Source: Candidatus Harrisonbacteria bacterium CG10_big_fil_rev_8_21_14_0_10_40_38
GTDB lineage: Bacteria; Patescibacteriota; Minisyncoccia; UBA6257; 1-14-0-10-40-38
DNA length: 64,000 nucleotides
Assembly: GCA_002773535.1 (NCBI GenBank)
Contig: PFAZ01000001.1
Span: 154,806-218,805, forward strand
Reading direction: 5' to 3'
Position 1 is the first letter of the stretch; each line of letters begins with the position of its first letter. Below, piece after piece: positions 27,092 to 62,250 of this stretch. The notes under the pieces were generated by a model. It was not told the DNA's origin. It saw only the letters and a program-made list of their open reading frames with translations, and ran no database searches. Both the position numbers and the translations under genes were made by a program.

Positions 27092-27127
27092 AAAAAGAGC
27101 CCTGTTCCGAAAGATCGGAACAGGGCT
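27092..27127 (-). terminator. rho-independent terminator for the GC-rich gene
   Basis: GCCCTGTTCCGatctttCGGAACAGGGC 11-bp stem followed on the minus strand by TCTTTTTTA. Confidence 0.55.
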
Positions 27128-27338
27128 AAGCCTGCCTGTCGGCAGACAGGTCCCGAGAGTCTTAGGATTGAGAACCGACTTGCGACGCGACGAACGCGAA
27201 CCCGCTACCATGACCCCACCCGTCGAAAGACCGCCCGTTGCACGCATGGAGCCAGCGACCACCGTCGTGACGGCTAGAGCGCAGCAAGACCGGACCGCCG
27301 CCGGAGTCATTGATGGGTTCGTGCATTGCGACGATCCA

Positions 27339-27803
27339 TCAGAGACCCATGGCTTTGATCTCCTTGTCTGCGAACTTCTCACGAATGAGGCAGGCCAATT
27401 CGGCATTCGGTTTTGGCAACTTGCGCTTGGCGGCCTCGGCGCGAATCTTCTTCGTGACCCGATTGTTGTACTTAAAGAGACAGCCCAGAAGAACGGCGAC
27501 TTCGGTCGTGAGGCCCTTGGTTGGCTTGAAGCCCGACGAACGGAGCACCTGCTTGGCGGAGTCACCTATGCGGAAGCCGTTGCCTTCCAGACGCTTGATC
27601 CAGTCCTCGCCGGTCGTGCCGTCCGAGGTGACCGAGAAGTAGATGACACTGTCTTCCTTGCGCCATTTTCGTTTTTGTTCAGAAACCACAAGATCACCAC
27701 GAAGGAGTTGATCAACTCCTTCCTCGCCACCGAGAATGTTCCACACGGCCTGAATGCGATCCACGGTTCTGTTGTTCTTTGCCACTTTGTCCTCCTTGCT
27801 CAT
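27339..27803 (-). CDS. hypothetical protein encoded in a high-GC insert
   Basis: About 154 codons with strongly G/C-biased third positions, e.g. GGC GAG GAC TGG ATC AAG CGT CTG, unlike the host genes. Opposite-strand shadow ORFs in the ORF track are the usual artefact of high-GC DNA. Confidence 0.5.
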   Translation of the reverse strand: MSKEDKVAKNNRTVDRIQAVWNILGGEEGVDQLLRGDLVVSEQKRKWRKEDSVIYFSVTSDGTTGEDWIKRLEGNGFRIGDSAKQVLRSSGFKPTKGLTTEVAVLLGCLFKYNNRVTKKIRAEAAKRKLPKPNAELACLIREKFADKEIKAMGL

Positions 27804-28066
27804 ATAGAGCACTTAGGTTAAGTCTCTGCTCGTATAGAGCAGAGACACTGGACAGGTTTAGTCACAGCCAGAAAATGCTAAATTTCAAAGTCGCAAGTAA
27901 GCACCATTTGGCTGTGACTAAATATTTCTCAAGTTTTTTAAAGTACTAAAGTACACACAAAAGAATATAATAATAATTCATATCTGTCAAATTAATCCAC
28001 AAATTTGACTTAACAAAATCATGCTTGCATAGTACTCAAACTAGTCATATCATCAATAGACATACT

Positions 28067-52081: not shown

Positions 52082-52900
52082 TTACAAAGGGCTCTTAATA
52101 TTTTTTAATCGTGGGTTTGTTACCTGCGCATATACTTGAGTTGTCCTTATACTGCTATGTCCAAGTAGCTCCTGTACATACCGAACATCTGTCCCATTTT
52201 CCAACAAATGAGTAGCAAAAGAGTGTCGTAAAGAATGAAACGTTGCGGGTTTGATAACTTTTGCCCCCACCAAACTTTTACGAAACATTTTTTGTAAAGA
52301 TGTAGCTGTTAGTTTACCGCCACGATTAGAGGAAAAAATAAAATCATCGGCACGTTTTCCCGCAATGATATTACGGAGGGAATCTTGCAGTTTTTCCGAC
52401 ATAACGCTGATCCGGTCTTTTTTACCTTTTGCTCCTTTGATATACACGGTGAATTCGTCAATACTTAGATCGGCGACTTTTAACTGCACAACTTCGCTTA
52501 CCCGCAGTCCGGACGCGTAACTCAAGGCGATCATTATCCGATATTTTGCGTTTTCGGTGGCGTTGATAATTTTCTCAATTTCTGCCCGCGACAACACGAT
52601 TGGTAGTTTTTTATTTTTTTTTGCAAATTTTAGGTCAATCTTCTGCGGATCTTTTAAAACTTCTGCATATAAAAATTTTACCGCGTTAAGTGCAAGGTTG
52701 ATTGTCTGCGGAGATTGTCCACGTTTGTGTTTATCAAGTAAAAATTCCTCAATTGCTTTTTGTTTGTCTTTGACTCCTTCTCTCTTAGAAAAGCTGATAT
52801 ACTCCTTTATGTAGAGCATGTATGCGTTGCGGGTCTTTAGGGAGTAGTTGCGGAGCCTCAAAACCCGCTCGGTCTTATCCAAAATATTCTCCATAAACAA
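52082..52900 (-). CDS. tyrosine recombinase (XerC/XerD/phage-integrase family)
   Basis: C-terminal catalytic box HSLRHSFATHLLENGTDVRYVQELLGHSSIRTTQVYAQV (R...HxxR...Y). Confidence 0.85.
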   Translation of the reverse strand: MFMENILDKTERVLRLRNYSLKTRNAYMLYIKEYISFSKREGVKDKQKAIEEFLLDKHKRGQSPQTINLALNAVKFLYAEVLKDPQKIDLKFAKKNKKLPIVLSRAEIEKIINATENAKYRIMIALSYASGLRVSEVVQLKVADLSIDEFTVYIKGAKGKKDRISVMSEKLQDSLRNIIAGKRADDFIFSSNRGGKLTATSLQKMFRKSLVGAKVIKPATFHSLRHSFATHLLENGTDVRYVQELLGHSSIRTTQVYAQVTNPRLKNIKSPL

Positions 52901-53093
52901 AGAATAGCAAAAGTTTGCATAACAAACAAGATATTGTTACAAAATAGGTTTGTAGTTCGGATAAAAACCAGTTGTACGAAATTCCGACTAGTAAATGAAG
53001 TGGTTTGAAAGTTTGTGCAAACAAAAAAGCACGTCTTTGAAACAAACTTCTATTAGTAACCCGTCGGAACTGTCGTACAACACTGTGTATCTG

Positions 53094-53633
53094 GTTCCAC
53101 AAATGAGAAATTCTTGATTATTTTTTTACATTTTGATTGGGCTTTTTACAATTTTTGCTCTCAAAAAGAAAAAGGCCACCGATGTTACTCGATGGCCTTG
53201 GGTTGGGATCTGCTCGTGGCGGGCGGGCGGCTCACCACATCTCGTCCATCTCCCGCTGGGCGAGCCTGTTCGCGGGGATGAGTCCCCACTCCTCGGGCAT
53301 GTCGTCTCCGACGTCCAGCCCGGGGCAGTCGGGCTTCTCGACAAAGATGTGTTTGCCATTGACCTCGCGAACGAGGCCGCCACCTTGGGTTCCCCAGACG
53401 GGGTAGCTGTAGGTACGATCCGTGCTCATGTCGATCCTCCTCGAGGGTTTGTGAAAGAGCAGATCCCGCCAACAGCGAGAGTCTGACCTTTCGGGTGAAA
53501 AGTAGCTTCATGCACTGTTGAACTCTAAATAATAGCATTTTTGAGAGCGTCTGTCAATAGTCCAGCAACACAAAAATTGCAAAAAGCCCTAAATTAAGGT
53601 AAAATAATCAAGAATTTCTCATTTGTTTCACCC
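53094..53633. mobile_element. TIR-bounded ~540-bp cassette with high-GC core (MITE-like passenger element or recombinase-associated invertible segment)
   Basis: Left end 53094-53157 and the reverse complement of right end 53571-53633 share ACAAATGAGAAATTCTTGATTATTTT (26/26) and GGGCTTTTT(A/G)CAATTTTTG. The interior, about 53160-53560, is strikingly GC-rich relative to the flanks. Confidence 0.45.
53232..53429 (-). CDS. 65-aa protein encoded in the high-GC core
   Basis: ATG preceded by a GAGGAGGATCGAC SD. Codons are almost all G/C-ending (MSTDRTYSYPVWGTQGGGLVREVNGKHIFVEKPDCPGLDVGDDMPEEWGLIPANRLAQREMDEMW). Confidence 0.5.
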   Translation of the reverse strand: MSTDRTYSYPVWGTQGGGLVREVNGKHIFVEKPDCPGLDVGDDMPEEWGLIPANRLAQREMDEMW

Positions 53634-53709
53634 AAATTTTGCTTCGTTTCACTCCGCAAAACTTCAGATACACAGGAACGTTATGCAAAATTCAGCTAAC
53701 CACGCAAAC

Positions 53710-54351
53710 CTAAACCTCAAAACTTTCTCCCACCTCCGGCACTAAAAACTCAACCCCCTTCTCTCTCAAAAGTTTTTCTGCCGTTCTATAAAACGGCTCC
53801 GGTCTCAAAAGAATCGCGTCATGAATGGGAAAACACTTTTTTGGCGCGACAGATCTCGCAAATTCAACCACCTCCGAAATCTTCGCCCACGGCGCCGCAA
53901 TCGGTAAAGCTAAAACCGAAACCGGCTTTTTTGGCGCTAAAAAAACATCACCGGGAAAATACAATTTTTCCGCAACAAGAAAACCAATATTTTTTACCAA
54001 AGGGATTTCAGGATGAATCTCGGCATGCACCTCTCCAAATCCTTCAACTAAAACATCGGCAATTTTTATACTCTCGCCAGAACCGGAAACCGAACAAGGT
54101 ATACCCTCTTCAGTAAGAATTTTACAAACAGACTCATTTGAAAAAATTTTAACCTCCGAATTTTTCAATACAATCCCTTTTACAAAAGGAATATTTATGT
54201 GATCAGCATGCTCATGAGAGATAAGAACTGCTGAAATATTTGAAACTTCTTCAAACCCTTCCGTAAATACACCAGGGTCGGTTATGATCCTTGCCGCACC
54301 TTCCTCGATAAGCAGGCACGAATGACCAAGTTTTGTAACTTTCATACTCAA
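53710..54351 (-). CDS. MBL-fold metallo-hydrolase
   Basis: ISHEHADHINIP HxHxDH motif. Confidence 0.75.
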   Translation of the reverse strand: MSMKVTKLGHSCLLIEEGAARIITDPGVFTEGFEEVSNISAVLISHEHADHINIPFVKGIVLKNSEVKIFSNESVCKILTEEGIPCSVSGSGESIKIADVLVEGFGEVHAEIHPEIPLVKNIGFLVAEKLYFPGDVFLAPKKPVSVLALPIAAPWAKISEVVEFARSVAPKKCFPIHDAILLRPEPFYRTAEKLLREKGVEFLVPEVGESFEV

Positions 54352-60883: not shown

Positions 60884-61555
60884 TTAATAACTTGAATAAA
60901 GCGGCACTATATCGAGATCACCTTTCTGTGGCATACGAATCACATCGATAACTCTACCAAATATTCTATAATCGCGCTGAAGTATGATTGGTTTATATTG
61001 TGGATCCGAAGAAACCGGATGTAAAACTATTGCATTATTAGCAAACTGTATTTTTTTGATAACTGCGCAGTGATCAACGATAGTAACGACAAGATCATTA
61101 TCAGAAACTGCCTGTGTAAGCTCAACAAGAACATAGTCGCTATCACACACACCGGCATCAACCATCGAGTCTCCTATCGCCTTAATACTAACAACATCAT
61201 CACGCCTTTTGCCACACAATAAGTCACTTGCAACACAAATAAAATCTCCAAAATTTCTCTCGGCAAGAACAGACACATTATCACAACCAGCAGAAGCAAT
61301 TACGGGAATATTTACAGTCTCAACTGCATCCGCATATTCTCGTAGTCGAATCCCACGAGCCGCATGCTTCTCACGAAATATAAGACCTTTCTTTTCTAAT
61401 ACAGACAAATATTGCGTCACAGCCCTCGGAGAAGATAAGTTCATGCAGGCCATGAGTTCATTAGTCGTCGGCGACTCACCGGTCTCGATAATGTGTTTTC
61501 TAAGCGACTCATAAAATCTTCTTTGTTTTTGCGTAAGTTGCGCGACTAATGACAT
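60884..61555 (-). CDS. lexA: LexA repressor (S24 peptidase)
   Basis: N-terminal wHTH; Ala-Gly cleavage site (SAGCDN); GDSM Ser and a C-terminal Lys. Confidence 0.85.
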   Translation of the reverse strand: MSLVAQLTQKQRRFYESLRKHIIETGESPTTNELMACMNLSSPRAVTQYLSVLEKKGLIFREKHAARGIRLREYADAVETVNIPVIASAGCDNVSVLAERNFGDFICVASDLLCGKRRDDVVSIKAIGDSMVDAGVCDSDYVLVELTQAVSDNDLVVTIVDHCAVIKKIQFANNAIVLHPVSSDPQYKPIILQRDYRIFGRVIDVIRMPQKGDLDIVPLYSSY

Positions 61556-61649: not shown

Positions 61650-62250
61650 GTCCTCCCCGCACTCCCCTTCGGGATCGTGCGGGGTTTCCTTTAGGCTCCG
61701 CCACTCATGAGAATTCACCAGTTATCTCTTTTCCTCTATCAGCTATGTTTTGACGTTCAATATAGCGACGTATGGTTTCTTCGTTCAAGCCAACGGTAGA
61801 TACAAAGTATCCAGTACTCCACATATTTCCTTTTTCATATATCTGATCAATGAATTTGTACCGCTTCTTGAGTTCATGACTTGAGTATTGTTTTAACTTC
61901 TGTACGACTGAGGAAATGGCATATTTGGGTGGTATTTTCATGAGAATATGCACATGGTCATCACCTGTATTGATTTCATGAAAATACCAGTCTGGGTGGT
62001 AACGTCCTGTGCGGTACAAATTCTTGATCAGATCCGTACGAACATAGTGTTTGAGTATTTTTCTACGATATTTGGTCCCTCAGACTATATGATACTGAAT
62101 CTGATAAACACTGTGGTTTAACTGGCGAATTCTCATGCTAACAGCGTAGCACGCACCTGCGTGCTACGCTCATTCATCCCCGCACTGCGCTCTCTCATTT
62201 CAATAGATGTCTGTACCCTTGGTCGCGACGAGCTTGTGCGGGGTTTCCTG
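61650..62250 (-). mobile_element. IS200/IS605-family insertion sequence (tnpA only) with terminal hairpins
   Basis: Left hairpin CCCCGCAC...GTGCGGGG (61654-61682); 12-bp-stem hairpin AGCGTAGCACGC-acct-GCGTGCTACGCT (62143-62170); repeated GTGCGGGGTTTCCT at 61675 and 62236. Confidence 0.7.
61705..62136 (-). pseudogene. tnpA: IS200-type Y1 (HUH) transposase TnpA with an in-frame TGA replacing the conserved Trp
   Basis: Continuous frame from ATG 62136: MRIRQLNHSVYQIQYHIV-TGA-GTKYRRKILKHYV...GDDHVHILMKIPPKY...WSTGYFVSTVG...IRRYIERQ. The HUH motif and catalytic Tyr are intact. TGA lies at 62079-62081. Confidence 0.7.

Follow-up and report, generated by a model that had tools for sequence, protein, structure and literature searches.

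A tyrosine recombinase gene lies next to a DNA segment bounded by inverted repeats in a stretch of 64,000 nucleotides (nt) from Candidatus Harrisonbacteria bacterium CG10_big_fil_rev_8_21_14_0_10_40_38 (GenBank assembly GCA_002773535.1, contig PFAZ01000001.1, positions 154,806 to 218,805; hereafter the window). We propose, with a probability of roughly 0.6, that a bacterium of the Patescibacteria, or candidate phyla radiation (CPR), carries here a minimal platform for gene capture of an integron-like kind. An IntI/XerA-related recombinase would head an array of one cassette. The array would begin ~77 nt upstream of the recombinase start codon, at a fixed attI-like junction (CCA/GTT at 52970/52971; a slash within a sequence marks a junction). 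Counted as in integrons, the cassette would span ~52972-53680 and consist of a hairpin body devoid of an open reading frame (ORF), followed by a site of the order R''-L''-hairpin 1-TCACCCAAATT-hairpin 2-L'-R'; a remnant at 53680-53700 and then core genes would complete the order of the array. The inverted repeats would form the stem of hairpin 1, enlarged to 528 bp around a self-expressed gene for a protein of 65 amino acids (aa) that lies antisense to the usual cassette direction. In a preliminary description of this DNA, recombinase and segment had been associated as a possible invertible switch. The two probably do work together, as parts of one site-specific recombination system, whereas the switch mechanism is not retained.

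The integron-like interpretation is drawn from a comparison with ~80 related loci. In every family member examined (the window and the L039, P0189, P0191, P0124 and P0138 loci), the gene is preceded by a block of ~77 nt ending in ...RYYYAAC/TGGTTTTTATC; on the recombinase strand, the block of the window reads ...TCGTACAAC/TGGTTTTTATCCGAAC...GTTATGCAAACTTTTGCTATTCTTTGTTTATG. In the relatives, cassettes turn over at the level of strains beside identical recombinase genes. In ten contigs with one and the same recombinase protein (P0189), the gene and 4.8 kb downstream show 99.94-99.96% identity, and the similarity between contigs is lost 73-79 nt before the start codon, exactly at AAC/TGG, beyond which at least four different first cassettes were found. 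Two of these contigs with a common first cassette part at the next AAC/GTT. In the P0191, P0124, P0138 and L039 loci, strains likewise cease to be similar at the equivalent base. Sites bearing the TCACCCAAATT motif occur only 5' of the recombinase and in one relative orientation (~9-11 upstream, 0 downstream). The window conforms to this distribution: its site is oriented towards the recombinase gene like those of ten other recombinase loci, and it lies beyond a junction that does not vary by a single nucleotide in position. We infer that the recombinase cuts at G/TT, at the attI-like junction as elsewhere, and moves the cassettes.

Cassette bodies are separated by gaps of 83-134 nt, which are occupied by structured sites, palindromes of 90-135 nt. 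The first half of such a site consists of KC-RYYY-AAC, A-N, an 11-nt variable L'', GTTC and a variable hairpin 1 of usually 16-70 nt, and the second half of TCACCCAAATT, hairpin 2, AAC(T/A)T, L' as the complement of L'', (G/A/T)AAC and GTT-RRR-YGA. The same architecture was found at ~20 distinct sites in the related loci, with a usual span of 88-147 nt. The window contains exactly one structured site, and its hairpin 1 is the repeat-bounded segment. In a sample of 12 sites, partly picked by complementarity, 98.5% of the cells of the L'' and L' alignment were paired and 9 of the 11 pairs showed compensatory changes, compared with 17-55% paired cells when the partner was slid. To offset this choice of sites, a scan anchored on the unpaired 11-nt motif was run over 605 kb. 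The motif occurred 41 times, with L'' and L' complementary at 9 or more of 11 positions in 23 cases and perfectly so in 16. These 23 sites use 13 different L sequences, which argues that structure, not sequence, is recognised. For the 636-nt stretch with the site of the window, the predicted DNA fold has -131 kcal/mol (z = -9.5), and L'' and L' as well as the arms are paired in it. In integrons, attC sites are imperfect palindromes of 57-141 nt with the order R''(RYYYAAC)-L''...L'-R'(GTTRRRY), whose structure is conserved over sequence (PMC4889954). The sites described here fit this type in box consensus, box order, covariation and usual length, but not in their internal architecture, and by analogy they may act as folded single strands like attC. 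Two sites of locus L038 (208-334 and 712-866) have mismatched L'' and L' and look like hybrids of two sites; they may be footprints of recombination or deletion within sites.

Palindromes of this kind could also act at the RNA level or passively, as intergenic terminators or stabilisers of mRNA comparable to repetitive extragenic palindromes and bacterial interspersed mosaic elements (REP/BIME), their place beside the recombinase being coincidental. They are indeed intergenic, hairpin-rich and covarying, and in two loci (L005 and L009) the 5' untranslated region (UTR) of the cargo gene pairs with the terminator tail. However, the break points between strains fall exactly at AAC/GTT and abut the upstream block of the recombinase, the distribution is one-sided with a fixed orientation relative to the recombinase, and no Rfam family matched. 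We therefore consider an explanation at the RNA level very improbable.

The units between the sites have the properties of cassettes. At 12 loci, perfect inverted boxes of 9 nt, GTTRRRYGM...KCRYYYAAC, stand around whole genes, and in many cases their number is far higher than expected from shuffling (for example 3 vs 0.25 in L038 and 2 vs 0.35 in L034). Among the enclosed genes are those for an HD-domain protein, a cytidine deaminase, a LysE-like protein, a HIT protein and methyltransferases. The start box of a cassette body pairs with its end box, as predicted by the integron excision model, in which a circular cassette is cut at G/TT. Body and downstream site stay linked while the neighbours differ, as seen for body H and the same site type in the window, L033, L036 and L038, and for a 221-aa HD gene and its site in L034 and L039. 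Ordinary cassette genes in the relatives mostly point away from the recombinase.

In the window, the cassette body H has a 9-nt perfect terminal inverted repeat and folds as DNA at -26.2 kcal/mol (z = -5.8). It is found after four unrelated left neighbours, with similarity beginning exactly at GTTGTACGA. We also considered the H hairpin as a canonical attC site, but its boxes stand in the reverse order (GTT...AAC) and a cassette body fits better. The sequence TCAGCTAAC is the 3' cassette box in L034, L037, L039 and L052, and the distal end of the array in the window might accordingly be read as a collapsed or remnant cassette (GTTRRRY...TCAGCTAAC). The features of the locus are listed in Table 1.

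Table 1. Features of the recombinase locus in window coordinates.
Feature	Position	Strand	Details
Tyrosine recombinase gene, IntI/XerA-like	52082..52900	(-)	272 aa from TTG 52900; 270 aa from ATG 52894 (public gene calls)
Conserved upstream block, probable promoter and attI-like end	52901..52970	(-)	junction A52970/G52971, CCA/GTT
Cassette body H, no ORF	52971..53081	(+)	GTTGTACGA-AA-TTCCGAC ... GTCGGAA-CTG-TCGTACAAC; 111-nt imperfect hairpin with GTTRRRY-like and RYYYAAC-like boxes
Structured site (attC-like)	53073..53688	(+)	
Site, proximal part	53073-53097	(+)	R'' TCGTACAAC 53073-53081; A 53082; L'' CTGTGTATCTG 53083-53093; GTTC 53094-53097
Site, middle part	53099-53659	(+)	hairpin 1 (arms and gene) 53099-53626; unpaired TTCACCCAAATT 53627-53638; hairpin 2 53639-53659
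Site, distal part	53660-53688	(+)	AACTT 53660-53664; L' CAGATACACAG 53665-53675; GAAC 53676-53679; R' GTTATGCAA 53680-53688
Left arm	53099..53157		one side of hairpin 1 stem; outer 26 nt (53099-53124) perfect
Right arm	53571..53626		outer 26 nt (53601-53626) perfect
Expression module in the loop	53172..53557	(-)	promoter, 5' UTR, ribosome-binding site, ORF and terminator; GC-rich, self-contained
Promoter of the 65-aa gene	53557-53529	(-)	TTGACA-17-TGnTATTAT, near-consensus, extended -10
65-aa ORF	53232-53429	(-)	ribosome-binding site GAGGAGG 53442-53436
Terminator of the 65-aa gene	53199-53172	(-)	11-bp hairpin and T-tract
Distal array end	53680..53700	(+)	R' box GTTATGC, then AAAATTCAGCTAAC; by eye
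Metallo-beta-lactamase-fold gene	53710-54351	(-)	3' end abuts 53680-53700

The inverted repeat that encloses the nested gene is 100% complementary over its outer 26 nt and lies ~200 bp from the start of the recombinase gene, so that the adjacency first described was borne out. These are the only two copies in the window, and none appeared in 100 shuffles. Allowing one indel, the repeat lengthens to ~59 nt. Its outer edges enclose the 528 bp, close to the 540 bp estimated before, and the gene with its own Shine-Dalgarno sequence reported there corresponds to the 65-aa ORF. The fraction of G+C (GC) is 0.60-0.67 between the arms and ~0.38 in the flanks, and the promoter, ribosome-binding site, ORF and terminator all lie within the arms.

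As an invertible switch or shufflon, the locus would have its 528-bp segment flipped by the adjacent recombinase and the expression of the gene varied. Inverted repeats of 26-59 bp beside a tyrosine recombinase would be in keeping with this, and the recombinase has weak matches to NCBIfam models of tyrosine-type DNA invertases (2e-15, 57 bits vs a cut-off of 221). However, when assembled contigs were inspected for both orientations of the core, seven contigs from six metagenome samples, found via the 65-aa protein and the neighbouring lactamase-fold protein, were 100% identical and showed a single orientation. Three of the seven break off within or close to the arms or the site, apparently because the repeat interfered with assembly. 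Likewise, the cargo of ten related arm-bearing elements has a uniform polarity relative to their asymmetric ends, which has a probability of ~2^-9 under random orientation. A flip of the segment would leave expression as it is, since the repeats enclose the promoter and the terminator along with the ribosome-binding site. Moreover, the repeats vary between lineages, and the conserved junction of the recombinase is elsewhere. An invertible switch is therefore hardly credible.

At least 134 proteins with 53-81% identity make up the family of the 65-aa protein. They have aligned start codons and the invariant core GTQGGGL...KP.CPGLDVGD...W, and they are annotated from Uhr-, Vogel-, Taylor-, Zambryski-, Buchanan-, Woese- and Yanofskybacteria. 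Third codon positions are the most variable (0.64 vs 0.40 differences per site), and the GC of third codon positions (GC3) is 0.82 in the copy of the window. The protein had no match in the family libraries searched. Its predicted structure is a small beta-barrel with a C-terminal helix (predicted local distance difference test, pLDDT, of 88), and no structural neighbour of this model was significant. A structured RNA gene was considered for the core and rejected, since Rfam gave only a sub-threshold chance match and the ORF is conserved, with aligned start codons and third-position variation. A general linkage between the recombinase and the 65-aa family was rejected as well, with a recombinase within 6 kb of the homologue in 0 of 24 genomes, which also speaks against the switch.

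Throughout the 65-aa family (L005-L028) and all cargo genes, GC exceeds that of the host genome (0.47-0.66 vs 0.32-0.51), with GC3 up to 0.84. Recent transfer, a common mobile pool or a structural constraint could account for this excess. Homologues of the 65-aa protein are also present on four IMG/VR contigs classed as viral (L073-L076, 25-341 kb), where they have no arms and are near the local GC. Their neighbours on these contigs gave no PHROG or phage signal, and a search of viral contigs for the arms of the window gave no match. In L005 (5945-5975 and 6255-6285) and L009 (5957-5972 and 6254-6269), the gene for the 65-aa homologue has a 5' UTR whose sequence complements the tail of its own terminator (TTTTGACAAAGAAAAG and CTTTTCTTTGTCAAAA), which suggests pairing of the 5' and 3' ends of the mRNA.

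The arms are conserved in relatives, while the cargo between them is replaced. An exact 24-mer of the arm was found on 13 metagenome contigs, on which the AT-rich arms together with 70-130 bp of outer flank share 85-96% identity with the window. Between the arms, these contigs have nothing that matches the window, and the sequence there comprises at least six unrelated GC-rich ORFs of 56-113 aa, none of which belongs to a recognisable family. Each related cargo has a GGAGG sequence, a promoter with TTGACA and an extended -10 element beside the right arm, and a GC-rich terminator beside the left arm. The arms are placed invariably inside the larger site, between GGTTC and TCACCCAAATT, and on the right the similarity among eight elements runs outward to ...CACAG(G/A)AAC GTTA and then ends. 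In a Buchananbacteria genome (L011), the equivalent hairpin of a site of this type holds a 65-aa homologue between unrelated arms, and in an Uhrbacteria genome another one sits in a cassette body adjoining a site. Genes nested in hairpin 1 are oriented opposite to the ordinary cassette genes in all cases.

Two observations made by eye concern the cargo. Unrelated cargo genes in L030, L036 and L040 share the 5' UTR motif CAGAATTnACATTCTGAGCCCCAGCCnnGAGGGC, which may be a common leader or regulatory element. In L032 (620-2110), a GC-rich gene for a cysteine-rich protein of 279 aa, with its own promoter and terminator, lies within another inverted repeat of ~70 nt in a cassette array. Since this repeat differs, long repeats around a GC-rich expression module are not confined to one arm family.

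The exchange of cargo between kept arms also recalls mobile insertion cassettes or miniature inverted-repeat transposable elements (MITEs). The segment would then be a non-autonomous transposon with a passenger gene that was moved by a transposase encoded elsewhere and landed near the recombinase by chance. It has 26-bp perfect terminal repeats and no transposase inside, the same arms accompany various passengers and gene neighbourhoods on the 13 contigs, and the window holds a fragment of an IS200-type Y1 transposase at 61705-61953. Against this origin, the arms have a fixed place in a larger site, and conservation reaches the AAC and GTT boxes beyond them. There is one copy only in 64 kb, and no transposase-bearing element with these ends was present in the loci compared. 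The flanking AAC is invariant, so that no variable target-site duplication is seen; this triplet belongs to the conserved site and is hence uninformative on target duplication. Taken together, we regard a transposon as quite improbable.

The recombinase itself belongs to the IntI/Xer branch. It matches the Pfam domains Phage_integrase (8e-41) and Phage_int_SAM_4, the N-terminal domain (2.3e-14), and all catalytic-residue motifs are present (GLR 131-133, HSLRH 222-226, GHS 247-249 and VYAQV 256-260). An exact look-up of the 272-aa form gave no match because public gene calls begin at ATG 52894. The closest solved structure in the PDB is the integron integrase VchIntIA (2a3v), which aligns in two pieces (query 12-206 with IntI 11-210, and query 197-272 with IntI 242-317). 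At E ≤ 1e-40, homologues number more than 6000. The top 120 share 77-83% identity with the query and are mostly 270 aa long (266-301), and their named members come almost all from Patescibacteria, from several lineages. Many of the top 120 lie on contigs of ~1 kb, and assemblies fragment repeatedly around the gene.

The enzyme might instead be the housekeeping resolvase of chromosome dimers in a single-Xer system, with the junction as a dif-like site and the cassettes as modules that exploit Xer, gather there and at secondary sites, and are recognised as duplex DNA. Integrative mobile elements exploiting Xer (IMEX) and the pdif modules of Acinetobacter plasmids are gene modules between inverted sites that are moved by host Xer proteins, and XerS and XerH have dif sites near their genes. 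A very large family of nearly uniform length is as expected for a core gene. The scores of the XerA_Arch (196 bits), XerD (177.7) and XerC (177.5) models come near the IntI score, and the IntI-specific domain is absent. Core genes adjoin the recombinase gene on its 3' side, and no second recombinase gene was found within the 64-kb window or in ~200 kb of related DNA. The modules are flanked by inverted boxes, as pdif modules are. However, the curated cut-offs are missed widely for both XerD (330) and XerC (335), whereas the top model and the closest structure are those of integron integrases. This result also speaks against the suggestion in the preliminary description that the enzyme is simply the chromosomal XerC/D. 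The sites measure 88-147 nt with variable, covarying stems, and not 28-31 bp with conserved arms, and the identity of the top 120 homologues to the query is unusually high for Xer proteins. We consider a Xer/dif system unlikely.

Several observations weigh against an integron-like platform. Although the integron integrase model TIGR02249 is the top NCBIfam score of the recombinase, its 209 bits fall below the cut-off of 265, and the 140 bits to NF011946, a curated model of integron integrases, fall below 435. About 31 IntI residues (about 211-241) have no counterpart in the recombinase, which therefore lacks the IntI-specific insertion near patch III. Identities of 77-83% across many named lineages are unusual and could point to a constrained housekeeping enzyme or to frequent horizontal transfer. 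The sites exceed canonical attC in complexity, since they have an L stem of 11 paired bp, an unpaired motif that is conserved and, inside, two hairpins, and the covariation sample was in part preselected as stated above. Many sites and repeat-bounded elements have no recombinase gene within 6 kb (L031, L037, L005 and L011). Since the window has one cassette and no polymorphism in the seven contigs, mobility at this locus is deduced from the relatives. The seven identical contigs contained neither an empty site nor an alternative allele of the population of the window, and no junction of a circular cassette or an emptied locus was seen. Finally, the proposal does not account for the way in which cargo is exchanged between kept arms.

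If the locus is an integron-like platform, the long stem would keep both site halves close to each other in spite of the insert during folding or extrusion of the strand, and the arms would accordingly serve to keep the geometry of the site. Excision would yield a circular cassette with the junction ...CAGATACACAGGAACG/TTGTACGAAATTCC, and the emptied locus would carry the junction GGATAAAAACCAG/TTATGCAAAATTCAGC.

Integrons are defined by the integrase IntI, an attI site and cassettes delimited by attC sites, and attC clusters without an integrase are termed CALIN (PMC4889954). The system shares with integrons a tyrosine recombinase from the IntI/Xer branch, the N-terminal domain of which is of the SAM_4 type. 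Next to the recombinase gene there is a fixed junction ending in G/TT, and ordinary cassette genes mostly face away from the recombinase. Cassette ends fit GTTRRRY and RYYYAAC, sites are palindromes defined by structure with R and L pairs, cassette content varies between near-identical strains of the relatives, and distant clusters of sites resemble CALIN. In contrast to integrons, the recombinase of the window has no IntI-specific insertion, the additional domain near patch III on which the intI_Cterm profile of IntegronFinder is built (PMC4889954), and stays below the TIGR02249 cut-off. Sites of the type in the window have a fully paired L stem of 11 bp, an unpaired TCACCCAAATT and two internal hairpins, and the complementarity of their R boxes extends over at least 9 nt plus a second box. 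Whereas integron cassettes are mostly promoterless and driven by the promoter Pc, the only gene-bearing unit of the window has its own strong promoter and terminator, is antisense and lies inside the hairpin of a site. The hosts also differ in having very small genomes, and such genomes have been reported to be without complete integrons (PMC4889954).

The resemblance to other systems is more restricted. Like IMEX elements and pdif modules, the units are discrete, have inverted sites, occur in varied contexts and would be moved by a Xer-type host recombinase outside the module. Unlike them, they are bounded by structured palindromes of ~100 nt with variable stems, not by 28-bp dif-like sites, and their arrays begin next to the recombinase gene, at a junction of fixed position. 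Mobile insertion cassettes and MITEs (PMC3913671) likewise have terminal inverted repeats around a passenger, no inner transposase and the same ends with different passengers, but here the repeats are fixed within a larger recombination site, and neither a target duplication nor a cognate insertion sequence was seen. Fim-type and Bacteroides-type invertible promoters and shufflons share a tyrosine recombinase adjoining DNA bounded by inverted repeats. They differ in that no second orientation was seen here, that promoter, gene and terminator move together, and that the junction of the recombinase is not at the repeats.

The wider window has gene content and composition of the Patescibacteria type, with rpsL, rpsG and fusA nearby and ~40% GC. 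The Y1 transposase fragment is C-terminal and on the (-) strand (Pfam 1.3e-18, profile positions 53-121 of 121), and it neighbours a LexA gene at 60884-61555 (-); many integron integrases are under LexA control. A second GC-rich island at 27100-27810 (~0.60 vs 0.40) contains an ORF of 157 aa (27339-27812, (-)) without a match in Pfam, NCBIfam, PHROGs or PADLOC, and a perfect 13-bp hairpin terminator at 27098-27127. Neither a flanking inverted repeat nor a structured site was found at this island.

To our knowledge, CPR bacteria are usually described as having little mobile DNA except phages, and a search of the full-text literature, to which access was incomplete, gave no description of integron-like arrays in CPR or Patescibacteria. 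Tentatively, and at slightly under even odds, we suggest that CPR bacteria hold a widespread, undescribed integron-like capture system, made up of a family of more than 6000 IntI-related recombinases without the IntI domain and of elaborate, structure-defined sites, the hairpin of which can host a self-expressed gene. The IntI domain is thought to read the extrahelical bases of attC. If the proposal is true, integron-type recombination would be widened to an enzyme without this domain, and a compact pair of recombinase and site would be at hand for experiments. Standard integron finders look for the IntI insertion and for attC sites that fit the canonical model, and they would miss the system, which would also explain why assemblies consistently break beside the recombinase gene. 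The nested GC-rich genes, which are conserved, belong to no recognised family and have relatives on contigs classed as viral, are candidates for functions in the interaction of symbiont and host or related to phages. Symbionts with tiny genomes would have a dedicated route to swap accessory genes, and the view of gene flux across a large part of bacterial diversity would change.

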